DNA of 64,000 nt from Deferribacterales bacterium (lineage in GTDB: Bacteria > Chrysiogenota > Deferribacteres > Deferribacterales > Geovibrionaceae). This document shows, in pieces, positions 1 to 12,317 of the stretch (within the stretch, counting starts at the first letter, position 1; each line of letters opens with the position of its first letter). The position numbers and the translations under genes were made by a program. Below the pieces are notes generated by a model. It did not search any database and had not been told where the DNA came from. It saw nothing but the letters and a program-made list of their open reading frames with translations. Location: contig JBFWJS010000003.1 in assembly GCA_050253075.1 (NCBI GenBank), positions 181,458 through 245,457 on the forward strand. Direction: 5' to 3'.

Positions 1-54
1 TGAATCGCCTCTAGTCTTATATATACTTTTGAGAATGAAAGCTAGGTGAGTTTC

Positions 55-74
55 TTCTGACAGGATTCTGACAG
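55..74 (-). promoter_or_regulatory. Tandem 11-bp-period direct repeat (CTGTCAG-N4-CTGTCAG on the minus strand), OmpR/PhoB-family-like binding box for a gene starting left of the window
   Basis: TTCTGACAG at 55-63 and 66-74; candidate -10 TAGCTT at 44-39 (minus); RBS-like AGAGG at 12-8 (minus). Confidence 0.5.
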
Positions 75-220
75 ATTGGGTGAAATAGCATTTAGAGTTA
101 AGTGATTATTGTCATTCACTTTAGCTCCCTATACTTCCCGCTGATTTCTATATGAATTAGAGTTCAAGGATGCCGAAACAAGTTCGCCATTTCGGGGAAA
201 ACTCGCTCTCGGCATTAAGG

Positions 221-249
221 AAAGCCCAGGGTAAAACTGGGCTTTTTTT
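221..249. terminator. Intrinsic terminator, probably bidirectional
   Basis: AAAGCCCAG-ggtaaaa-CTGGGCTTT, ending in a run of 7 T on +; lies downstream of the minus-strand cytochrome b gene. Confidence 0.75.
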
Positions 250-276
250 GTCTCTGCGGTTCTTTGGTTTGGAAAG

Positions 277-945
277 TTACTTCTTTGGCTCTGCTATGGG
301 TTCCTGCTTTATCCCTGTGAGCATAGAGCCGACCATGCCGAAGATGTATGATGCGTATGCATGGATGACCGCATAAACCACCATTATCATCGATACTGAT
401 ATGTGAAGAAATCTCGTTGCGGCGGCAGGGTTGTCAAACCCGCTGAAGATCGCCTGACTAAATCTGTTTACGATGCTGAAATCTGCCGGAAATATCAGCC
501 CCAGACCTGTCAGTACCATTATCATCCAAAGGGTAAGCCAACCCCACCAAGCAAGTACTTCCGTTAAGACTATCTTTTCCTCATACTTATTCTTTTCAAT
601 ATTATACCTGACGGGGCTCTCTAGTTTTTTGCCCTCTACGATGCACTTTATCTCGTGCATGAAAAAGTCGAATCCTTTGCCAATGCGGGAAAGCCCGAAC
701 CATTTGTATTCACCGCTAACGACGAAATAATATAGGAAGAACGTTATGGTTCCCGTCCATGCCATGGATATGACTATGTGCAGGCTTCTCGCAACGCCTC
801 TGCTGAGGATAGGCAGCTTAAGGTATTCGCTGACCGCCATGCCTGAGATAACAAGCATGAGTACCTCTGCGACGATCGCCCAGTGCAGTATTCTGTATGT
901 AAGGCTGTGTCTTTTAACGCTTATGGTATTAGTCGTTGTCTTCAT
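277..945 (-). CDS. Di-haem cytochrome b, Ni/Fe-hydrogenase/formate dehydrogenase (HyaC/FdnI/PhsC-like) type
   Basis: Four hydrophobic helices; His21 (RILHW), His56 (RSLHI), His181 and His195 (RFLH..VIHAY) in the spacing typical of this family; overlaps the upstream gene. Confidence 0.8.
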   Translation of the reverse strand: MKTTTNTISVKRHSLTYRILHWAIVAEVLMLVISGMAVSEYLKLPILSRGVARSLHIVISMAWTGTITFFLYYFVVSGEYKWFGLSRIGKGFDFFMHEIKCIVEGKKLESPVRYNIEKNKYEEKIVLTEVLAWWGWLTLWMIMVLTGLGLIFPADFSIVNRFSQAIFSGFDNPAAATRFLHISVSMIMVVYAVIHAYASYIFGMVGSMLTGIKQEPIAEPKK

Positions 946-1975
946 GGTCTTTTCCTTTCTTGGCTCGCTTGTTTACGGCGTGAACGCCTATGCCGGAGAT
1001 GGTTCCGACGACTGCTGCCCCTGCCCAAGTGTTCACCTTTGTGCCGAAGGCTGTCTGAAGTCTGTTTTCGCCTTTATGCGGGTCCATCTTTTTGTCATGT
1101 TTGTCGTCGTGACAGCTTCCGCATTCCATAGATCCTCTGGTGAACTGTCCTGACTCGTATTTGTCGCCTTTGGAGTGGCATGTTTTACATCCTGCAGTAT
1201 CATGTGAGAGGTGCATAGGGAAAGCGGTGTGGAGCTCGCCTTTGACGTGGGCGTTCATTAGCTTCACTGCCATGGCTGCTATGTCGCCTGTCACTCTGGC
1301 ACATCTTTCCGATCTTTCTTTCGCACCGCTGGCATAGCCTGATTTTTCGCACCACTTGCCCACACTTACATGGCAGAGGACAGAGCTGCTGCATGACTGT
1401 GGCAGAGCATTTGCGCTCTTGTATTTAGGCGGGAAGAACTCGCCCGAGGATGCGTACGTATTTGATTCGTTCGTGGGGAAAGACTCAGTTTCGTAATATC
1501 TTAAAAGTCTGGGGACAATCTCGTCGACCACATTCATCGGCAGCATGTATGTCATGGCAGAAGCAGCCCCGTTTGGTGCACCGCAAAGTGTTCCGTATCC
1601 TGCGACACCGCCTGCGGCATACTGCATGGGTATCTGCATGTGTTTTTTGCTCCCTGTTTCGAGGTGTTCCATAAAGTCCTCTTTGCTGTAGCTGGGGATA
1701 AGGGTAAATGGATATCCAGTCTTTTCACGCATGGCTGTTATGATAGCCCAGAAGGCGCCGCCGCCGCACTCCTCGAGATAATATCCGAGATGACCGAGTT
1801 TCCTCACGTATTCAGGATCCAGCTCCTGATAACCCCATGGGAGTATAGGCGTCTCCTGTTGTTCTGCGGGGGTTTCTGCCGCTAATGCGCTCTTCATTGT
1901 TGCGGTACTGCATAAAGCCATTCCTGAAACGGCCACTGCACCCTTGATAAAATTTCTCCTGTTTAATGTCCTCAT
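929..1975 (-). CDS. Tat-exported split-Soret cytochrome c-like protein (C-GCAxxG-C-C family) with two CxxCH haem motifs and a C-terminal membrane anchor
   Basis: Tat motif NRRNFIKG; EECGGGAF, GTLCGA, LCHVSVGKWC, RSERCAR; CKTCH and CGSCH; C-terminal WAGAAVVGTISGIGVHAV; RBS GGAGG favours ATG 1975 over GTG 1978. Confidence 0.8.
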   Translation of the reverse strand: MRTLNRRNFIKGAVAVSGMALCSTATMKSALAAETPAEQQETPILPWGYQELDPEYVRKLGHLGYYLEECGGGAFWAIITAMREKTGYPFTLIPSYSKEDFMEHLETGSKKHMQIPMQYAAGGVAGYGTLCGAPNGAASAMTYMLPMNVVDEIVPRLLRYYETESFPTNESNTYASSGEFFPPKYKSANALPQSCSSSVLCHVSVGKWCEKSGYASGAKERSERCARVTGDIAAMAVKLMNAHVKGELHTAFPMHLSHDTAGCKTCHSKGDKYESGQFTRGSMECGSCHDDKHDKKMDPHKGENRLQTAFGTKVNTWAGAAVVGTISGIGVHAVNKRAKKGKDHEDND

Positions 1976-2101
1976 CACTCACCTCCATAAAATGTTGCTT
2001 TGTTGAGTTTTACTGTATGTATATTAATTTTATTTATATATAAAAAAGCTGGTTTGGGTTTTAAAAAAGCGAATGCTTAGGCAAGTCGGAATATCTATAG
2101 T

Positions 2102-2123
2102 AATATATTGTTTACAATATATT
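2102..2123. promoter_or_regulatory. Perfect 10-2-10 inverted repeat, candidate operator between the cytochrome operon and lysR
   Basis: AATATATTGT-tt-ACAATATATT in the AT-rich divergent intergenic region. Confidence 0.45.
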
Positions 2124-2260
2124 TATGGCTAAGTTATTCCGGCTTTAACTTTGCATTATTTCTTATGTATACAAAACTAAGGTTGTATAATAAGACAATA
2201 GTCACTATATTTTCTTATGTAAAATCAATAATAATTGAATAATATATAAGGAAAATTTAT

Positions 2261-3139
2261 ATGAATATAACGATAAGGCAGGTAGAGGTGTTTTATTACA
2301 CCGCAAAGCTGGGGAGCATATCACTTACGGCTGAAAAGCTGTGCATAACCCAAGCCGCTGCCAGTATGGCTTTGAAAGGGTTTGAGGAGCAACTGGGTGA
2401 GAAGCTCTTTGACAGGGTCGGCAAGAAACTAGTGCTGAACGGTAAGGGGGATGCGATACTTCATGCCTCTTCGGAACTGATATCAAAAGCCGGTGAAATT
2501 TCTAATTTTTTCTCTGATAAGTCATCATTGTACGGGCATCTGGCCATAGGAACTATCCCGTCTATCGCTAATTATGTTCTGCCTGAGTATATCTCCGCCT
2601 TTGTGGATGAAAATCCGAAGAGCAGTGTCCATATGAATATAGGCAACAGTGATTACGTTATAGATAAACTGCTTAAACATGAGATAGATATAGGGGTGAT
2701 AGAAAAGCCTTACAGGCACCCGCAGATAGAAGTTGTCCAGTGGAAAGAGGATGAGCTGTCCATATTCACATCTGCTTCTCACTCTTTAACTAAAAAGGAG
2801 AGGGTCGAGCCTTCTGATCTGGAGGAATTCGGCTGGGTGATGAGAGAGATAGGCGCAGGCTCCAGAAGGGTTTTGGAGAGCGAACTGAAAGAACACTCTA
2901 TTAAAATACAGATAACGATGGAGCTGACTCTAACCGAGGCGATAAAAAACTATGTCGCCAGCGGGCGAGGCATTGGCTGCCTGTCTAAATATGTTCTCGG
3001 AGATATGGAAAAACTGGGCAAGATAAAAACACTTTCGACCCCGTTTCTTAATCTTAAGCGCAGTTTTTACGTTATTCTGCATAAGGATAGATTCAGAACG
3101 AGGCTTCTGGAGGAGTTTACGAACCTGCTGCGGCTTTGA
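2261..3139 (+). CDS. LysR-family transcriptional regulator (CysL/CmpR-like)
   Basis: N-terminal HTH (AEKLCITQAAASMALK..E..LG.KLFDR); C-terminal substrate-binding domain (WVMREIGAGSR); divergent from the cytochrome operon. Confidence 0.92.
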   Translation: MNITIRQVEVFYYTAKLGSISLTAEKLCITQAAASMALKGFEEQLGEKLFDRVGKKLVLNGKGDAILHASSELISKAGEISNFFSDKSSLYGHLAIGTIPSIANYVLPEYISAFVDENPKSSVHMNIGNSDYVIDKLLKHEIDIGVIEKPYRHPQIEVVQWKEDELSIFTSASHSLTKKERVEPSDLEEFGWVMREIGAGSRRVLESELKEHSIKIQITMELTLTEAIKNYVASGRGIGCLSKYVLGDMEKLGKIKTLSTPFLNLKRSFYVILHKDRFRTRLLEEFTNLLRL

Positions 3140-3228
3140 TGATTAGTTAAGCACCGGTGTCCACTTCATTGGAAAACCATGAGAGAAGCAATTATAATAG
3201 ATCATTAGTTATTACAGGGAGTTGATTT

Positions 3229-4443
3229 ATGTCTGAATGGCTTGGCAAGAACGATCCGCATATGGAAAACCTTCGCTTATACTGCGAAGGGATACTGGAA
3301 GATGAAGACCTCGGCGCTCTTTATGCTGAATATGAGAGCGACATAAAATCTGTCAGATACGACGAAGTTATGGCGTTGGTTGACTGGATGGTTACCTGTG
3401 AGAAATATGATATGGAAACTATCAAAGGAGCTCTTAACAGGATAATCAACATATTTTCCAATCAGTTAGATGATGATGTCTTTAACCTCTGCAGGAATGT
3501 TCCGCAGTTTATATCTATAATGACAGACGAGAACGCAGCGATAACCGAGCATATGGAATCTATCAAAGAGCAGCTTCAGCTTTTCAGCAAGGCGGAAGAG
3601 GGCTCGCAGGAATTCGACAGATACAGACGTGCTATCAAAAAGAAGATCGAAGAGCTCGCAGAGATAGAAAAGCACTATGTAAAGAAGGAGAATATCCTTT
3701 TTCCTTATGTTGAGAAATACATCCCAGAGTATAGATGTGTTAATGTGATGTGGTCTATCCACGATGATGTACGTAAAGGGATGAAGTCGCTTCTGACGGT
3801 TTTGGATGCTGATAAATATGACGGCATCAGGTTTAACAGAGTGGTCGGTAAGCTGTTTTTTGATATTTACGGGCTGATCTTTAGGGAAGACTACATTCTG
3901 CTCCCTATGGCTGCCTTGAAGATACCTGAAAATGTTTTTCCCGAGATGGCGGGACAATGCCCTGAGGAGGGGTACAGCTTTATAGATACCCCTGAGGTGG
4001 AGAGCATTAAAGCAGAAGAGCCGAAACTGCCCGAAGGGATGATAAATATGGAGACGGGTTCTCTCACAGTCGGCGAGCTTATGACTATGCTGAACACTCT
4101 GCCTGTGGACATCACATATGTTGATGCAGACGATAAGGTAAGGTATTTTTCCTCGCCTAATGAGCGTATATTTCCACGCTCAAAGGCCATCATCGGCCGA
4201 AGCGTGCAGAACTGTCATCCGCCGGAGAGCGTGCATATCGTGAATGAGGTCGTGGAAAGGCTGAAATCCGGCAAGCGTGATGTGGAATCATTCTGGATAC
4301 AGATGATGGGTAAGTTCATACTGATACAGTATTTTGCACTCCGAGACGGCGAAGGGGAGTACATCGGCACAATAGAGGTCAGTCAGGACATCACAGAGCT
4401 TCGCTCGCTTTCAGGCGAAAAGAGGCTTCTGGATTATCAATAG
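3229..4443 (+). CDS. DUF438-like protein with hemerythrin-like and C-terminal PAS domains
   Basis: HYVKKENILFPY, VMWSIHD, IFREDYILLP (hemerythrin/HHE-like); C-terminal PAS with LPVDITYVD..DKVRYFS..RIFPR..IGRSVQNCHPPES. Confidence 0.85.
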   Translation: MSEWLGKNDPHMENLRLYCEGILEDEDLGALYAEYESDIKSVRYDEVMALVDWMVTCEKYDMETIKGALNRIINIFSNQLDDDVFNLCRNVPQFISIMTDENAAITEHMESIKEQLQLFSKAEEGSQEFDRYRRAIKKKIEELAEIEKHYVKKENILFPYVEKYIPEYRCVNVMWSIHDDVRKGMKSLLTVLDADKYDGIRFNRVVGKLFFDIYGLIFREDYILLPMAALKIPENVFPEMAGQCPEEGYSFIDTPEVESIKAEEPKLPEGMINMETGSLTVGELMTMLNTLPVDITYVDADDKVRYFSSPNERIFPRSKAIIGRSVQNCHPPESVHIVNEVVERLKSGKRDVESFWIQMMGKFILIQYFALRDGEGEYIGTIEVSQDITELRSLSGEKRLLDYQ

Positions 4444-4454
4444 ATTTATAAACG

Positions 4455-4485
4455 GTATAGCCGGCTTTAAAAGTGCCGGCTATGC
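4455..4485. terminator. Hairpin terminator between convergent genes
   Basis: GTATAGCCGGC-N9-GCCGGCTATGC followed by a T-rich tract. Confidence 0.65.
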
Positions 4486-4490
4486 TTGTT

Positions 4491-4862
4491 TTATTTTACT
4501 TTTTTCGCCGTGACATCACGCACAATAGAGCTGAAGCCCGCTCTTTTGCCGTTTTCGTGTATCACCTGTATAGAGAATTCTATGATGAGCTTATGCCCGT
4601 CTTTAGAGACAGCAGGCACAGAGAGCATTTTGTCTGCATATCCGCTTTCGCCTGTTTCGATAACCCTGTCAAATCCTGTCCAGTGTTTTGCCCTGTGTCT
4701 TTCGGGGATGATAAGGTCTAGATTCTGCCCCAGAGCCTCGCTTTCGGAGAATCCGAAGATCTTTTCACAGCCGATATTCCAGTATCTGATGATTCCGTCA
4801 GCCGAAACATACATTATACCGTCGTGGGCTGTCTCTGCCATTTCTTTTAAAAAATCAGTCAT
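4491..4862 (-). CDS. Stand-alone PAS-domain protein, FixL haem-PAS-like
   Basis: DGIIRYWN.GCEKIFGFS..EALGQNLDLIIPERHRAKH; His60 lies at the position of the FixL haem ligand. Confidence 0.85.
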   Translation of the reverse strand: MTDFLKEMAETAHDGIMYVSADGIIRYWNIGCEKIFGFSESEALGQNLDLIIPERHRAKHWTGFDRVIETGESGYADKMLSVPAVSKDGHKLIIEFSIQVIHENGKRAGFSSIVRDVTAKKVK

Positions 4863-4917
4863 TTCAGCACCCCTTATGATTCTTATAATAAAATAACCCG
4901 CCTTTTGAATATGTAAA

Positions 4918-4931
4918 TTGATTCAGGTCAA
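4918..4931. promoter_or_regulatory. FNR/Dnr-type (Crp/Fnr family) binding site
   Basis: TTGAT-tcag-GTCAA, 9/10 match to TTGAT-N4-ATCAA, upstream of the PAS gene. Confidence 0.6.
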
Positions 4932-4982
4932 TAATCATCGATTGGGTAAAAAACGTTATTTCGGACATATTAATTTACATAT

Positions 4983-4996
4983 TTAACGCAGATCAA
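4983..4996. promoter_or_regulatory. Second, weaker FNR/Dnr-type site
   Basis: TTAAC-gcag-ATCAA, 8/10 match, upstream of the NIT chemoreceptor. Confidence 0.45.
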
Positions 4997-5088
4997 TTTT
5001 TTAAATCTAATAAATGTTAAAACTGATATGTCCCGATGCTGTGAGCATCTTATTTTCATTTAGCGGCTAATTATTTAAGGGGTGGAAT

Positions 5089-7068
5089 ATGAATATCAAA
5101 ACAAAACTTTATCTTGCTTTAGTAATACCTGTTATCGCTCTGATGATTTATTCAGTATCGGGCATAATGCGTAACTACAACACATACGACAATATGGTGC
5201 ACATTGTCAGCTATACGGATACGTCCGCTCTGGTCAGCAGGCTGGTGCATGAGACTCAGAAAGAGAGAGGAATGACGGCAGGGTTCATAGGCAGCGGCGG
5301 TTCGTCATTTTCATCCGAGCTCAAAAGGCAGAGGGAATTGACGGATAAGACAGCGTATGAATTCACATCATTTTTTGAAAGTCATAAGGCGAAGCTGTCG
5401 ACTGAGCTGCTGGAGCACATCGGCGTAGCCTTAAGATATATGGATCAGATGCCAGACATAAGGAGGCGGGTGGATTCTTTCTCCATACCTCTTTCGGATG
5501 CGATATCCTATTACTCCGGTCTTAACGGCGATTTCCTGTCTGTTATAGCGGATGCGGCACAGGCAGCGGATAATGCATCAGTATCGAGGAATTTGTTGGC
5601 ATATATGAGCTTTCTTTTGGCAAAAGAGAGGGCTGGTATCGAGAGGGCTGTCCTCGCGAATGTCTTTGCCAAAGACAGCTTTGGCAAAGGACTTTATGAA
5701 AAACTCATAAGGCTCATCGCAGAGCAGGATTCATATATGAGTTCTTTCGAGCTTTCCGCTTCGGAAGATATATTGAATATCTATAATACAGTGCTGTCCG
5801 ATCCTTCTTTTAAAGAGGTGGCAAAGTATCGTCAGACAGCCGTCGACGGGGCAGCTTCGGGCAATTTCGGCATCAGCTCCGATAAATGGTTTGCGACGAT
5901 AACGCAAAAGATAAATGCACTAAAAGAAGCAGACGATAAGATGAGCACGTCTATCATAGATCAGGCGAACCTGTCATTATCCTCTGCAAAGCGCAGTATG
6001 CTTATGAATATCTTCATCAGTGTTTTATCCATCATATCCCTTCTGGCTCTGCTTTATGTCATCAGAGATGCGGTGATATCCAACCTGCTCAGGTTGATAA
6101 GGCTGACGGCGAATCTCAATAGCGGTGACGCAAACCTTACACAGAGGATAGTTGTTAAAAATAAGGATGAGATAGGTGAGCTGGCGGAAAATATAAATAC
6201 TTTCATCGCCAGTATCGAGGACATCGTCGTGGATGTGAAGAATGTTTCGAACAACCTCGCATCGAGCAGTGCCGAATTTGCCGCCACAGCCGAAGAATTG
6301 TCCACCACTTTTTCAGAACAGACAGGTCAGGCAAATGATATGGCTTCCGCTATGGAGGAGATGAATGTCACGTCTAAATCCATAAATGAAAATACATATG
6401 AGGCAAATAACCTCACACTACAGGCTTTTGAGCTGACCCTTGAGGGGAGCGGAGAGCTCGCCAATGCAGTGAAGAAGATAAACAGCATTAAAAACTCCAC
6501 AGAGGAGCTTTCTATAGTGATAGCAAATCTTAATAACTCTTCGGGTGAGATAGGCGACATAGCGGGCTCCATAGCAGATATTGCAGACCAGACAAATCTG
6601 CTGGCGCTGAACGCCGCCATTGAGGCAGCCAGAGCAGGGGATGCAGGAAGGGGATTCGCCGTGGTGGCAGACGAGGTTAGAAAGCTCGCCGAAAAGACTC
6701 AGGAATCGACTAAAATGATCACCGAGATCATCGGTACTCTGGTCAACGAGTCTAAACAGGCGGATAAGAACATGTCTATGGCAAAGGTGAGTGTGGACGA
6801 AGGTGTAGAGGTCATCGAGCTTACCACTGTTATTTTCAATAAAATTAAAGATGCCGTTTCAAAGGTTAAAGAGGCAAATGACTTTGTCGGTGTCTCGATA
6901 TCCGAACAGGCAGATGCGATAGACGCAAGCAGCGAGAATATCCGCATGGTCTTTCAGGGGATCACCGAGAGCAACGTTGCTGTGGAGCAGATCAGCTTTA
7001 CCGTGAATGATCTGGAAAGTCAGGCGGTCAGCTTGAATAATATGATGAATAAATTCAGAACCAAATAG
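5089..7068 (+). CDS. Methyl-accepting chemotaxis protein with periplasmic NIT (nitrate/nitrite-sensing) domain
   Basis: Two TM helices; NIT motifs [10 protein letters not shown] and [16 protein letters not shown] hairpin [36 protein letters not shown]. Confidence 0.92.
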
Positions 7069-7082
7069 ACACTCGGCATATA

Positions 7083-7120
7083 AGAAAAGCTCAGTGTAAA
7101 GCTGGGCTTTTCTATCTTTT
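7083..7120. terminator. Bidirectional intrinsic terminator
   Basis: AGAAAAGCTCAG-N7-CTGGGCTTTTCT between convergent MCP and araC genes. Confidence 0.7.
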
Positions 7121-7123
7121 TGT

Positions 7124-8002
7124 TTATTCCGACTTAGAGTTCATTATCTCTGTGGGGCTCTCTCCGAAAAACTTTTTAAACTCTCGGCTGAATTGTGAAA
7201 CGCTCTCATAGCCGACCTTATGGGCGGCGATATAAACCTTCATCCTTTCATTTTTGATGAGTTCCTTCGCTTTATTCATGCGCACTTTCTTTATATACTG
7301 ACCAGGTGATTCGGATGTTATCTCTTTGAAAGCTCGGTGAAATGTCGAGAGGCTCATGTTTGCCGATTCTGCCAGATGTGTCACATCGTCTTTGATAGAG
7401 CAGTCTCTGTGTATCATCATCAGCGCCTTTGAAATACGTGCAAATTTACCGTCGTGGGCGGCGAGTGCATAGAGCGACTGAGCCTGACTGCCTCGGAGAG
7501 CTCTGTATATTATCTCCCGAACAAGTCCCGGGCCAAGTATGGACGCCTCTGTCTCAGACTTCAGGCATTTCAGCAGGCGTATAACAGTGTCGGACATTTC
7601 CATATCCATAGTGGCCGGGCCTACACCTTTCGGTATCTCGGCCACCGACAGGTCTCTTCCGGTGCTGTTCTGGCCGAGCAGTCCTATCAGCTCGTGCAGC
7701 ATGGGCATGTCTATGTCCACGTACAGCCCGAGGAAAGGCTTGTCAGGTTGGGCGAATGTCTCGCACTCGAAAGGTATGGGAAGCGATGTCACAAGGTAGT
7801 TCTGTGCGTCATACTGAAAGCTGCGCTCGCCGAGGTAGCCTATCTTCTGCCCCTGAGCCACGATGAATATCCCCGTGTTGTACAGCAGGGGAGACCTGCA
7901 TATATGGGTGCCGGATTTAAAAAAGCGCACACCATTCAGGTGGGATTTGTTGAACAGTTCGTTCAGGTTAAATTGTTCGAGCAGTTCTACCATCTGAGAC
8001 AT
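7124..8002 (-). CDS. AraC-family regulator, YqhC-like
   Basis: N-terminal AraC_N-type region (IVAQGQK..YDAQNYLVTS.P.PFECE); C-terminal double HTH (MSLSTFHRAFK..VGYESVSQFSREFKKFFG); divergent from an Fe-ADH. Confidence 0.9.
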   Translation of the reverse strand: MSQMVELLEQFNLNELFNKSHLNGVRFFKSGTHICRSPLLYNTGIFIVAQGQKIGYLGERSFQYDAQNYLVTSLPIPFECETFAQPDKPFLGLYVDIDMPMLHELIGLLGQNSTGRDLSVAEIPKGVGPATMDMEMSDTVIRLLKCLKSETEASILGPGLVREIIYRALRGSQAQSLYALAAHDGKFARISKALMMIHRDCSIKDDVTHLAESANMSLSTFHRAFKEITSESPGQYIKKVRMNKAKELIKNERMKVYIAAHKVGYESVSQFSREFKKFFGESPTEIMNSKSE

Positions 8003-8091
8003 GCATTCACCTCTGTTATCGTCTGTGTTAATTTACTTGGCACAATATAGCATGAAAAAATGTAAAAATACTATTTAAAAATATCATTTTG

Positions 8092-8154
8092 ACATGATTA
8101 AGCAAAGTTTAAGCAGGAATGGATATTCCATTCTCTTTTCGGTGTCTGTATAGT
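8092..8154 (+). promoter_or_regulatory. Candidate AraC-type activator site plus -10 hexamer for the adh gene
   Basis: ACATGATTAAGCAAAGTTTAAGCAGGAATGG (8092-8122), 26 nt, then TATAGT (8149-8154); a similar site with identical spacing occurs at 16135-16197. Confidence 0.5.
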
Positions 8155-8210
8155 CCTTCAAACAAACGGACGTCCCCGGAAAATATGAACAGACAAAAAA
8201 GGAGAAAATA

Positions 8211-9356
8211 ATGTCATCATTTACAGTACCAAGAACTATCCACCACGGCCCAGGCTCATTAGAAAACCTCAAAGACGTAAAAGGCAGCAAAGCTGTTATC
8301 GTGATTGGCGGCGGTTCTATGAAGAGGCTCGGTGTTCTCGATAGAACTATCGCACTTCTTAAAGAAGGCGGTATCGAATCAGTTGTTTTCGAAGGTGTAG
8401 AGGCTGATCCTTCCGTTAATACAGTTATGAAAGGCGTTGAGCTTTTTAACAGAGAAAAGCCCGACCTCATCATCGGTCTCGGCGGATGCTCTGCCATAGA
8501 CGCTGCAAAGGCTATGTGGATATTCTACGAATACCCTGACTATACTTTTGCCGATGTCACAGTGCCTTTCGGCATCAAATCGCTGAGGAACAAGGCTCAC
8601 TTCGTAGCTATTCCTTCCACAAGCGGTACAGGTACAGAGGTCACATGTGTGGCTGTTATCACTGATACAGAAAAGGGGATCAAACACCCCCTCGTATCCT
8701 ATGAGATAACACCGGACATCGCCATCGTTGACGGCGAGCTCGCCAAAAGTATGCCCGCAAACGTGACGGCAGACACAGGCATGGACGCTCTTTCTCACGA
8801 TGTAGAGGCTGTTGTGGCGGCACTTGCCAGCACATATTCAGACACCCTCGCCATAGATTCTATCAGTGCTATTTTCGAAAACCTGCCTGTGGTTGTCGCA
8901 GACGGAGAGAATATAGAGGCAAGACAGGCAATGCACGACGCTTCATGCAAGGCCGGTATCGCATTCTCTAACGCTATCCTCGGCATCATCCACTCTATGT
9001 CTCATCAGATAGGCGGAACATTCAGCATACCTCACGGACGTGCGAATGCTATCCTCATGCCTAACGTCATCAGATATAACAGTGTAGAGACTGATAAATA
9101 TGAGCTTATGGCTAAGGCTGTGGGGAAAGAGACAGCGGAAGAGTTCGCTTGTGAAGTTGAAGCTCTCCGCGAAAGAGTGGGCATCGAAAAGAGCTTCCGT
9201 GACTACGGCATAGACGAGAAAGAGTGGAACGAAAAGCTCGACGACCTTGTAGACCACGCTCTCGCAGACCCATGTACGGGTACAAACCCTAGAAAACCTT
9301 CGGCAGCAGATATCAAAAACATACTGACATGCTGCTACAACGGCGTATCTATCTAA
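8211..9356 (+). CDS. Iron-containing alcohol dehydrogenase (butanol dehydrogenase-like)
   Basis: GLGGCSAIDAAK, AIPSTSGTGTEVT, GMDALSH, GIIHSMSH, IPHGRANA; strong RBS AAGGAG. Confidence 0.95.
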   Translation: MSSFTVPRTIHHGPGSLENLKDVKGSKAVIVIGGGSMKRLGVLDRTIALLKEGGIESVVFEGVEADPSVNTVMKGVELFNREKPDLIIGLGGCSAIDAAKAMWIFYEYPDYTFADVTVPFGIKSLRNKAHFVAIPSTSGTGTEVTCVAVITDTEKGIKHPLVSYEITPDIAIVDGELAKSMPANVTADTGMDALSHDVEAVVAALASTYSDTLAIDSISAIFENLPVVVADGENIEARQAMHDASCKAGIAFSNAILGIIHSMSHQIGGTFSIPHGRANAILMPNVIRYNSVETDKYELMAKAVGKETAEEFACEVEALRERVGIEKSFRDYGIDEKEWNEKLDDLVDHALADPCTGTNPRKPSAADIKNILTCCYNGVSI

Positions 9357-9398
9357 AATATTCAAGGTGTCATGACCTTTTTAAGTAACAAGAAGTCG

Positions 9399-9432
9399 AA
9401 GGACTCTGCACCCTGCAGGGTCCTTTTGCTTT
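9399..9432 (+). terminator. Intrinsic terminator
   Basis: AAGGACTCTGCA-ccc-TGCAGGGTCCTT followed by TTGCTTT. Confidence 0.7.
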
Positions 9433-9442
9433 TCAGCGGAGT

Positions 9443-10099
9443 TTAGAAATGGATGGAGATGTTCCGCCCGTGGGTTGTTATCTCATTTCGCTCTATCATT
9501 GCTTTTATTATGCGGGAGAGGTTCTCAGGGGTGGTGCCGAGCAGAATTGCCAGCTCGCACTTTGCCACAGGCAGCCTGAAGCTCTTTGAATTTTTCTTTT
9601 CCGCATGCCTCAGCAGGAAATTTTCCAGACGCTGTTTCGTGTCGGACAGCATCAGATCCTCTATATGTGTGATGTAGAACTCAAATTCCTTTTTACATGA
9701 CGCCAGCATATCTTCCAGAACTTCATTGTCGCTGAAGGCGGCCTGTTTCAGCACGTTCTTATCCACGGCGAGCACCTCGCACCTTTCCAGTGCTTCGGCG
9801 GAAAGTATCGTCGGCCCTGTGATGATGCTCTTTGCAAAGGATTCGCCGGGCGAGATATATTTAAATACGACTTCCTTGCCGTCTTCGTTATGCCTGTACA
9901 GCTTTATGAGACCGCTTATCAGGTGGTAGGTGCTGTCCAGGATGTCCCCTTGCGTATAGAGCGTCTCTTTCTTTTTCAGAAAAAACACATTGCTGTTTTT
10001 TTCAATTTTTTCAGCCAGCGAAGGGGCATTCTTACCTATTCTGTGTAAGAGCAGGCTCTCTATCGCATCTTTTTTATTCAAAGTCTTAACACGCGTCAA
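9443..10099 (-). CDS. Crp/Fnr-family regulator (Dnr/HcpR-like, no FNR N-terminal Cys cluster)
   Basis: cNMP-like domain (LYTQGD..LISGLIKLY..DGKEVV..PGESF); HTH ELAILLGTTPENLSRIIK with the E--SR recognition motif; TTG start with AAGGAG RBS. Confidence 0.88.
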   Translation of the reverse strand: MTRVKTLNKKDAIESLLLHRIGKNAPSLAEKIEKNSNVFFLKKKETLYTQGDILDSTYHLISGLIKLYRHNEDGKEVVFKYISPGESFAKSIITGPTILSAEALERCEVLAVDKNVLKQAAFSDNEVLEDMLASCKKEFEFYITHIEDLMLSDTKQRLENFLLRHAEKKNSKSFRLPVAKCELAILLGTTPENLSRIIKAMIERNEITTHGRNISIHF

Positions 10100-10116
10100 T
10101 GTTTTACTCCTTAAAT

Positions 10117-10135
10117 GATGTTAATACTCATTATC
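10117..10135. promoter_or_regulatory. Fur box
   Basis: GATGTTAATACTCATTATC, 15/19 match to GATAATGATAATCATTATC, in the short divergent region upstream of the TonB receptor. Confidence 0.65.
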
Positions 10136-10205
10136 AATAAGTGGACGGCTTGTCAACGAAAACAGGAATAATAATGACTTTATAAATGTTACAGGAGATA
10201 AATTT

Positions 10206-12317
10206 ATGAGAGTACTATTGGCATTGATGATTGTTTTTACATTTTCAGTATCCGTACATGCAGAGAATATCATGCAGGATACCATTTATCTGGATTCTGT
10301 CACGGTGACAGACACGGGCTTCACGGAAGAACAGCTTAAATCCAGCGGATACAGGGTGGATGAAAGCAAGAGGAGCAACAACATCGCAGACTTCCTCGAG
10401 GACGACCCTGAGATAAGCCTTAAGAGGAAAACCGTAATAGGCGACAGCGGAGATGTCCTTACCATCAGGGGGCAGAGCGGACAGAGGATAATGATGAATC
10501 TGGACGGCAGATCGATGAACTCCACAGGTACAAACGGCGGTAACTATATAGATTTCAGCACTATCCCGCTGGACAACATTGAACGCATAGAAGTTATCAA
10601 AGGCGGAAGCAGCGCAGAATACGGCAATAATGCCCTCGGCGGTGTCATAAACGCATATACATATAAGCCCTCATCAAAGCCCAGTATAAACCTGTATGGT
10701 ACACTTGGTAAGTGGGACTGGGACGACGGCTTTTCTAATATACGAGGCAGCTATCTGCAGAAATTCGGCGCAATAGGCTTTAGCCTCTCAGGCAGCTATC
10801 AGGAAGCAGACGAATACCTCTGGAACAACGACTACCGCTCGACCCACTTCGCACCGAAGCTGTATATCGATACGCCCGGCGGAGGCGAGCTCGTACTCGG
10901 ATATGACTATACCAGAACATACCGGGGGCTCATCATAACAAACAGAGCCTCGAACGACCCTGACGACCCGGGGTATGACCAAAAGATAAATGAGGATGCT
11001 CCGCTCTCTCTCGGAGAGGTATTTTCTGGCGGTGCGGGCGGACGTGCCATGAGCGTAATAGGCGAGGGCGCACACTCAAATAAGATAAAGCATATGTACA
11101 ACGCAGCATATACCCATAATATAGGCGACAATGCCTTTGTCGAGTTCTCCGCATTTATGAACAAAGAGGATAGAGAGGATAAGAACTACGCAGATTCCAC
11201 ATTCGGCGGTGTGCAGGAGGGCGACCTTGTTCTCGACAGAACAGTAGAAGTAGACCGCAGCTACGGCTTTAAGGCGAAGAGCGAGATCAACCTTGAGAAG
11301 CACCACATAATCTTAGGCGCAGAGCAGAAGAATATGAAAGCAGGCGCAATAGACGTTGACTATGTAGCCTCAGGTCCGTGGCAGGGCGGTATCTCCAGCT
11401 CGGATTCCGACCCTGAGATAGAGAACATCGGCGTCTTTTTATCAGACACATGGGCGATAAATAATAAGCTCAGTATAGACGCAGGTCTCAGATACGACGA
11501 CTATGAAGCGGGACAGGATAAAACTATAAACGGAGTCCCCGGTCGTAAAACATATGAGGAAGACAGCCTGACACCGAAACTGGGAGCGACATACGCTTTC
11601 ACAGACAGAGACAAACTGGGCGTATATGTCTATCAGAGCTACAGAACTCCGACCATCCCCGAGATGAACCACTACGGCGACGCTCTCTCCATAGCGGCGC
11701 TGGAGGATGAGTCTCTGAAAGCGGAAAAAGCGAATGCCATAGATATGGCTTATAAGCACACATTCGCAGACAGGTCAGGATATGTGAAGCTGTCGGCATT
11801 CTATTACGACATAAAAGACTATCTGCTGATGGGCACAAACCCCGATACGAATATGGGGCGTATAACGTATAACATCGACAACGCAGTCTTCAAGGGGGTC
11901 AGCACGGCTGTCAGCTATAATGTATCCCCTAAGGTGACAGTGAACGCAGGTGCCGCATATCAAAAGACCAAAAAGAAGGGCGACCCTGTGACAGAATCAT
12001 ACGTTGGCTATACCTCAGACGAGGTGGACTATGTACCAGATGTCAAAGCTAATGCAGGGGTGGTGTGGAGGATAAGCGACAAGCTGACTCTGGACACTGA
12101 GCTGAGCTATGTGGGTGAGCGTAAATATTTCTACTACGGGAAATCACGTGACCTCGACCCATACGTGCTGGCGGATGCAAGCATAAGCTGGGAAGTGCTG
12201 AAGAATACTACCGTCGAGTTCTATCTCGATAACATATTTGATAAAGAATACGAAGAACAGTACGGATATCCTTCACTGGGGATAAACGGAGGAGTGAGCG
12301 TTAAATGGAAACTGTGA
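10206..12317 (+). CDS. TonB-dependent outer-membrane receptor
   Basis: Signal peptide; TonB-box-like DSVTVT; plug (TIRG..LDGR..IERIEVIKGGSSAEYG..ALGGVIN); beta-barrel ending DNIFDKEY..SVKWKL. Confidence 0.93.
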   Translation: MRVLLALMIVFTFSVSVHAENIMQDTIYLDSVTVTDTGFTEEQLKSSGYRVDESKRSNNIADFLEDDPEISLKRKTVIGDSGDVLTIRGQSGQRIMMNLDGRSMNSTGTNGGNYIDFSTIPLDNIERIEVIKGGSSAEYGNNALGGVINAYTYKPSSKPSINLYGTLGKWDWDDGFSNIRGSYLQKFGAIGFSLSGSYQEADEYLWNNDYRSTHFAPKLYIDTPGGGELVLGYDYTRTYRGLIITNRASNDPDDPGYDQKINEDAPLSLGEVFSGGAGGRAMSVIGEGAHSNKIKHMYNAAYTHNIGDNAFVEFSAFMNKEDREDKNYADSTFGGVQEGDLVLDRTVEVDRSYGFKAKSEINLEKHHIILGAEQKNMKAGAIDVDYVASGPWQGGISSSDSDPEIENIGVFLSDTWAINNKLSIDAGLRYDDYEAGQDKTINGVPGRKTYEEDSLTPKLGATYAFTDRDKLGVYVYQSYRTPTIPEMNHYGDALSIAALEDESLKAEKANAIDMAYKHTFADRSGYVKLSAFYYDIKDYLLMGTNPDTNMGRITYNIDNAVFKGVSTAVSYNVSPKVTVNAGAAYQKTKKKGDPVTESYVGYTSDEVDYVPDVKANAGVVWRISDKLTLDTELSYVGERKYFYYGKSRDLDPYVLADASISWEVLKNTTVEFYLDNIFDKEYEEQYGYPSLGINGGVSVKWKL

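Follow-up and report, generated by a model that had tools for sequence, protein, structure and literature searches.

Two overlapping genes in the window (the whole 64,000-nucleotide stretch of a Deferribacterales genome analysed here) encode a split-Soret cytochrome c (Ssc)-like protein with a twin-arginine (Tat) signal and a histidine-bearing C-terminal tail, and a four-histidine cytochrome b. The two genes are strictly paired across genomes, and both membrane parts, the tail and the cytochrome b, are homologous to parts of [NiFe]-hydrogenases. Because these parts are closely related to the membrane parts of archaeal hydrogenases, the pair is likely to form a respiratory complex. Comparison of the sequences makes it probable that the two proteins build a two-subunit membrane complex, and that the tail and the cytochrome b were taken together from an archaeal-type [NiFe]-hydrogenase operon.

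Anatomy of the gene pair

The features of the locus are collected in Table 1. ORF A, the head gene, has an alternative GTG start one codon upstream of the ATG, which would give a protein of 349 residues. Its Tat motif is well conserved (R6 in 114/120 and R7 in 113/120 listed homologues), and its score against PF10518 is 17.4 bits, under the cut-off of 22.7. The four cysteines of the head align with cysteines of the Ssc structure 1H21; we take them to hold a [2Fe-2S] centre, as in Ssc. These residues (C70, C131, C201 and C225), together with H202 and the arginines R221 and R224 that flank C225, are invariant in 82/82 alignment rows. H300 is kept in 116 of the 120 listed homologues, and we infer that H202 and H300 are the distal haem ligands. 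ORF A scores 27.7 bits against PF09719 (the C-GCAxxG-C-C family), a marginal pass of the gathering cut-off of 27, 28 against TIGR01909 (below the cut-off of 47.4) and 158.8 bits against NF047622 (split-Soret cytochrome c; short of the curated cut-off of 400). The solved structure that best matched its sequence was 1H21 (E 4.6e-28), which was also the sole Foldseek match of the ORF A model at E <= 0.001 (E 1.1e-12, TM 0.77 by target), a fold comparison limited by the low confidence of the model in the haem region.

Table 1 Features of the gene pair and its regulator (positions in the window)
Feature	Position	Strand	Basis or detail
Four-helix dihaem cytochrome b gene, ORF B	277..945	(-)	222 aa; His21/56/181/195
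Anchored Ssc-like dihaem cytochrome c gene, ORF A	929..1975	(-)	348 aa from ATG
C-terminal anchor of ORF A, T308-V334 (His332 codon 980-982)	974..1054	(-)	homology to archaeal hydrogenase small-subunit tails
CxxCH haem c site 2 of ORF A, residues 285-289	1109..1123	(-)	motif
CxxCH haem c site 1 of ORF A, residues 263-267	1175..1189	(-)	motif
Four-Cys domain of ORF A, predicted iron-centre site	1301..1768	(-)	C70, C131, C201, C225; H202
Tat motif of ORF A, residues 6-11	1943..1960	(-)	R6/R7 conservation
ATAA-N7-TTAT palindrome, LysR-type box, before the regulator gene	2246..2260	(+)	conservation
YeiE-like LysR regulator gene travelling with the pair, divergent	2261..3139	(+)	recurs beside the pair

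1H21 is the Ssc of Desulfovibrio desulfuricans ATCC 27774, which shares with ORF A the fold, the four cysteines and the two C-terminal CxxCH motifs, whereas ORF A adds a tail helix and has a dedicated cytochrome b. The D. desulfuricans protein is soluble. It is also a dimer, according to the title of a paper cited in PMC8840924.

The tail helix of ORF A (W317-V334) contains His332 and is followed by the basic residues K336 and R337. Its hydrophobicity is no more than moderate (best 19-residue Kyte-Doolittle mean 1.32), and the single-chain model places it with low confidence (pLDDT about 52-60). Because the basic residues come next, His332 would sit at the cytoplasmic face, and because the cytochrome b has four histidine ligands of its own, His332 is unlikely to ligate iron. 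In Wolinella succinogenes HydA, the anchor histidine is reportedly needed for quinone reactivity.

ORF B overlaps ORF A by 17 bp, matches PF01292 (prokaryotic cytochrome b561; 51.1 bits, cut-off 30.1) and is modelled as a confident four-helix fold (pLDDT 90), nearest to 1KQF_C and 4GD3_A (FdnI and HyaC; against 1KQF, Z 14.2, rmsd 3.8, 180 aligned). Its histidines 21/56/181/195 align with H18/57/155/169 of FdnI and H22/63/184/198 of HyaC, and His13 is likewise invariant in 33/33 aligned homologues. Scores against TIGR02125 (HyaC/HydC; 23.9) and TIGR01583 (FdnI; 18.7) did not reach the cut-offs of 121.5 and 115.85, and a sequence search of the PDB with ORF B gave no match. Asn110 and Gln113 of FdnI, before helix 3, presumably form the quinone-site motif; in ORF B they are replaced by Val126 and Glu129, placed by the register of the intermediate relatives P0169, P0172 and P0176, with the direct alignment gapped there. 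The motif is similarly altered in close relatives outside the Ssc-linked family (P0157-P0162), among them P0162, a fusion with a hydrogenase maturation protease.

The first-pass annotation had described a Tat-signal protein of the C-GCAxxG-C-C type with two CxxCH motifs, a hydrophobic C-terminal helix with a histidine followed by basic residues, and an overlapping cytochrome b with four transmembrane helices and these same four histidines, and all of these were found as it had them. It had also remarked that no hydrogenase or molybdoenzyme catalytic subunit lies nearby; genes of neither kind occur at window positions 1-12000 or, as far as ORF starts show, in the 15 kb before the window.

Promoter and terminator scans of the region gave results at chance level. 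By eye, positions 221-250 downstream of the cytochrome b gene show an inverted repeat of 9 bp accompanied by a T run; this may be a bidirectional terminator, though it is absent from the terminator scan list. On the other side of the locus, the LysR gene is directly followed by a hemerythrin-PAS protein gene (3229-4443), whose recurrence beside other copies of the pair was not seen.

The head and the cytochrome b are strictly paired

We scanned species genomes for the head and examined the best 80 of 232 relatives, a sample that leans to close relatives because the best matches were taken. In this sample, heads with a histidine tail were directly followed by the four-helix cytochrome b at 30/31 loci, two of which leave fewer than 700 bases of room; at the 31st, 18 bases are left. 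Heads with a tail lacking the histidine were followed by a different, six-helix FdnI-like cytochrome b (10/10). By contrast, neither cytochrome b stood next to any of the 37 tail-less heads (four with fewer than 700 bases), as scored by two profiles and Pfam on 75 chosen neighbours, and the remaining two of the 80 loci were cut. Searching from the other partner gave the same picture: 16 of the 18 metagenome loci found through the cytochrome b have a histidine-tail head upstream and the other two start at a contig edge, in a search whose patterns favour this cytochrome b family and whose loci may in part duplicate genome loci. Co-occurrence, which the first-pass annotation had proposed to survey, is complete in the loci examined, every exception being cut. 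In the window's phylum, 7/7 strong cytochrome b matches adjoin a head, and four weak ones (about 20 bits) are not beside one. No fusion of head and cytochrome b occurs among 7994 longer candidates, though this result carries little weight.

The pair is patchily distributed, being present in 5/16 genomes of the family. Among the best 80 of 232, hosts include Deferribacterota, Thermodesulfobacteriota, Chloroflexota, Aquificota, Campylobacterota and Thermoproteota, and the pair is present in a cultured type strain, Trichlorobacter thiogenes (L048). On the contig of L160 the head gene occurs a second time in inverted orientation, which may be an artefact of assembly.

Conservation of the anchor histidine had been part of the original proposal. 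Among the 120 listed proteins, the histidine is retained in 77 of the 78 tails of the His332 type, but it is not required in every anchored Ssc, because a sister clade without it pairs with a different cytochrome b. These His-less anchored proteins were seen at L053, L055, L057-L059, L061-L063, L065 and L066; their six-helix cytochrome b is extended by two helices at the N terminus, and six of its histidines are invariant.

All anchored heads form one branch (SH-aLRT 100) in a quick tree of the tail-free core from which seven broken loci were omitted. Tail type changes just two to three times on this tree (sign test p 0.5), so the pairing is not statistically independent. We dropped the idea that tail and partner were swapped repeatedly on the Ssc tree: the quick tree needs three changes, and a single origin of the histidine-tail form is not rejected (p-AU 0.50).

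Two further arrangements of the split-Soret fold were seen. The genome has a second Ssc-like gene (L002:1204-1983, in G000:C2:351466-354136) with one CxxCH and no tail, followed by a 4Fe-4S-like subunit with an RR leader and a 402-residue membrane protein (NrfC/NrfD-like by eye); such a locus would connect the fold to the membrane in yet a third manner. At L100, L101, L102 and L104, the Ssc head carries a fused C-terminal domain which, by eye, resembles a secretion-system sorting domain.

Both membrane parts are related to archaeal hydrogenase parts

Outside the Ssc-linked family, the cytochrome b has its nearest relatives (205-241 bits) in [NiFe]-hydrogenase operons of archaea. At L205 and L206 the relative lies with genes for the small and the large subunit, and at L193-L195 with genes for the large subunit and a protease. 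Across 43 genomes of the phylum of G055, six matches to the cytochrome b profile were found: two beside Ssc, three flanked by genes for a [NiFe] large subunit and for a maturation protease, and one fragment. A tree of 31 rows groups the 16 Ssc-linked cytochromes b in a single clade (98/98), with three from archaeal hydrogenase operons as its sister group (96/97). Hydrogenase-linked cytochromes b of Archaeoglobales branch further out, so that the Ssc-linked proteins are nested inside the hydrogenase-linked ones. Holding all non-Ssc ingroup rows together was narrowly rejected (p-AU 0.041), and the direction of the graft rests on this value, obtained with a long-branch outgroup.

The first-pass annotation had suggested a profile search of the tail against the C termini of hydrogenase small subunits, and this search revealed homology, closest to archaea. 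The tail profile matched the C termini of the two archaeal small subunits compared (E 1.6e-11 and 1.9e-7 among 252 frames), which come from loci selected by their cytochrome b, not by their tail. Aligned by hhalign, Ssc tails and archaeal small-subunit tails reached 97.4% over 42 columns, a probability that is inflated for such helices, because a control of His-less hydrogenase tails against the same archaeal tails also reached 93.9%. The match to bacterial hydrogenases was weaker: their tails reached 86% with histidine on histidine, a motif-level likeness, the tail HMM gave ranks of 30 (the genome's own hydrogenase tail) and 20 among 818 tails, and E. coli HyaA reached 12.9%. Searches of the PDB and Pfam with the tail profile gave unrelated matches only, with neither a hydrogenase chain nor a relevant family among them.

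The tail and cytochrome b unit is found behind three different heads: hydrogenase small subunits, Ssc and, at the Archaeoglobales loci L207, L209, L210 and L213, secreted proteins with nine CxxCH motifs and a histidine tail, followed by the same cytochrome b subfamily. Together, the tail homology and the cytochrome b tree support the earlier proposal that a hydrogenase membrane module was grafted onto a split-Soret protein.

All parts of the pair are of known kinds. Like the [NiFe]-hydrogenases of the HyaABC/HydABC type, it combines a histidine C-tail on a Tat subunit with a four-histidine cytochrome b, and in the archaeal operons at L205 and L206 both membrane parts are homologous to those of the pair. 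Unlike hydrogenases, the pair has neither a large nor a small hydrogenase subunit, and its head has no PF14720 match. FdnH/FdnI (1KQF) offers the best fold match to ORF B, with the four histidines aligned and an FdnH tail that also ends in a histidine, whereas the pair has no molybdoenzyme or 4Fe-4S subunit, the quinone-site Asn and Gln are replaced, and the two tails show no detectable kinship (hhalign 2.5%).

The module had been put forward as undescribed, which has to be softened, because a neighbouring Ssc and cytochrome b gene pair, Pyrde_1256/Pyrde_1257, is noted for Pyrodictium delaneyi in the accessible text of PMC8105010. The Pyrodictiaceae loci that we examined have a His-less tail and a six-helix cytochrome b, and we infer that the P. 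delaneyi pair belongs to this form. A membrane-attached Ssc is mentioned in the available part of PMC8359318. What stands is that the histidine-tail, four-helix family, the two-way matching of partners and the hydrogenase origin were not found in the literature covered, which included few subscription papers; the supplements of PMC8105010 and PMC11492766 may list such genes.

Regulator and gene neighbours

Among the 16 family genomes, an orthologue of the divergent YeiE-like LysR gene occurs at exactly the seven places that have the pair. The palindrome before it is kept in 5/5 aligned intergenic regions and matches one preceding E. coli yeiE; its position, not its count, carries weight, because the window has four matches against 1.39 expected. 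The LysR scores 250 bits against NF040889 (YeiE), below 480. Of the eight residues lining the sulfite site of YeiE (as given in the accessible text of PMC8931317), four are identical in the window's LysR and one is a conservative change, whereas the paralogous copies L183/L184 have 7/8. Five of the seven LysRs beside the pair, the window's included, have lost at least half of the site. The three-gene cassette is present twice in each of two genomes (L028-L031); the YeiE-type pocket is near-intact in one copy and altered in the other, which suggests that the two respond to different signals.

Other regulators were seen at some loci. L032, L033, L034, L040, L047 and L050 have a sigma-54 -24/-12 motif upstream of the pair and, except for L033, which is cut, a sigma-54 two-component system downstream; the Geobacteraceae loci L036, L037 and L048 have the two-component system and no -24/-12 motif.

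The gene neighbours, the YeiE-like regulator among them, hint at a sulfur oxyanion. YeeE, YeiH or DsrAB adjoin 8 of the 37 tail-less relatives among the best 80 of 232, in three phyla. In Desulfovibrio, ssc genes are predicted to be preceded by a binding motif for DVU0539/DVU0946 (accessible text of PMC3333781), and an operon with an exporter of the PSE family is presumed to be under the control of DVU0539 (available part of PMC10102598). Against this hint, the window's LysR keeps just four of the eight sulfite-lining residues, the genome has a separate yeiE-yeiH-like pair, the phenotype of the PSE cluster was molybdate (also from PMC10102598), and the published expression links of Ssc, as far as the accessible texts of PMC5701242 and PMC8105010 go, are to nitrate. 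Our best guess at the substrate, a tentative one and less likely than not to be right, is a low-potential sulfur oxyanion such as sulfite. The gene order yeiH-ssc-dsrA(-dsrB) was seen in Chloroflexota (L082, L083 and L099). In the genome itself, tblastn with one query each found no DsrA, DsrB or YeeE. A similar single-query search had suggested that yeiH was absent, and this was overturned by a PF03601 gene beside a second YeiE-like LysR, a separate yeiE-yeiH-like pair.

Proposed complex and alternative readings

In the complex that we favour, the head would be exported folded through Tat, with an iron centre in the four-Cys site and two haems c, and the tail helix would pack on the cytochrome b. 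The head would form the catalytic end, and the complex would pass electrons between a periplasmic substrate and the quinone pool, by a path that may run from the four-Cys site through the haems c to the periplasm-side haem b, the cytoplasm-side haem b and menaquinone. Descent from a hydrogenase would point to oxidation on the periplasmic side and to an electrogenic loop of the kind known from hydrogenase and formate dehydrogenase N. Lying where the helix reaches the cytoplasm, beside a cytochrome b that has all four of its own ligands, His332 would support the distal haem or a quinone site and not ligate iron.

The complex could instead be a non-catalytic adapter, in which soluble periplasmic dehydrogenases (anchor-less hydrogenases, for example) pass electrons to the head and the head only hands them on to the cytochrome b and quinone. 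Ssc is called an electron-transport cytochrome in the part of PMC8359318 that was accessible, two of the genome's hydrogenase small subunits have an RR leader but lack a tail helix, and its histidine-tail hydrogenase operon (G000:C4:216683-220036) is without an adjacent cytochrome b. However, a lone HyaC-like gene is present on another contig (G000:C6:202643-203335), and the pair has its own travelling regulator and a patchy distribution. Moreover, no catalytic gene recurs beside the pair in the 41 anchored loci among the best 80 of 232 (one, L061, has an upstream molybdoenzyme operon, with its own cytochrome b), and invariant arginines flank C225. We regard an adapter as possible though somewhat unlikely.

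Electrons might also flow the other way: the complex would then oxidise quinol, as a terminal reductase or in detoxification, and an oxyanion of sulfur or nitrogen would be reduced at its four-Cys site. In thiosulfate reductase a cytochrome b of this family works in that reverse direction, and the quinone-site motif of ORF B differs from that of FdnI. Pyrde_1257 of P. delaneyi rose on nitrate (accessible text of PMC8105010), and Ssc was nitrate-induced according to earlier work cited in the available part of PMC5701242. Yet the altered motif is shared by P0157-P0162, and because these close relatives lie outside the Ssc-linked family, it looks inherited from uptake enzymes and not a mark of reversal; we consider such a reductase unlikely. 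That the genes are co-transcribed while the proteins form no complex, the tail being a generic Tat C-tail anchor with an incidental histidine, would fit the mutual resemblance of Gly/Ala-rich tail helices and the two to three tail changes that leave the pairing non-independent, but it is highly improbable given a tail-plus-cytochrome b unit behind three different heads and a histidine kept in 77/78 tails.

Within the favoured reading of a two-subunit respiratory complex, a more specific proposal is that the pair is a molybdenum-free, quinone-linked oxidoreductase of sulfite or a related sulfur oxyanion, in which the four-Cys iron site is catalytic and a hydrogenase anchor-plus-cytochrome b cassette is plugged onto the fold. 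We put this forward as speculative and doubtful. If true, it would be the first enzymatic function for the long-orphan split-Soret family.

Significance

To our knowledge, Ssc has no assigned function more than 20 years after its structure was solved. Mutants of Ssc in D. alaskensis had little phenotype, according to the accessible text of 10.1101/005694. The pair described here offers a testable link to this orphan protein family: an Ssc wired to its own cytochrome b allows a direct assay, with quinone turnover as a substrate screen, and swaps with the close hydrogenase relatives could show what the anchor histidine does. More broadly, the histidine anchor and its cytochrome b make up a portable cassette that is found behind three unrelated heads.
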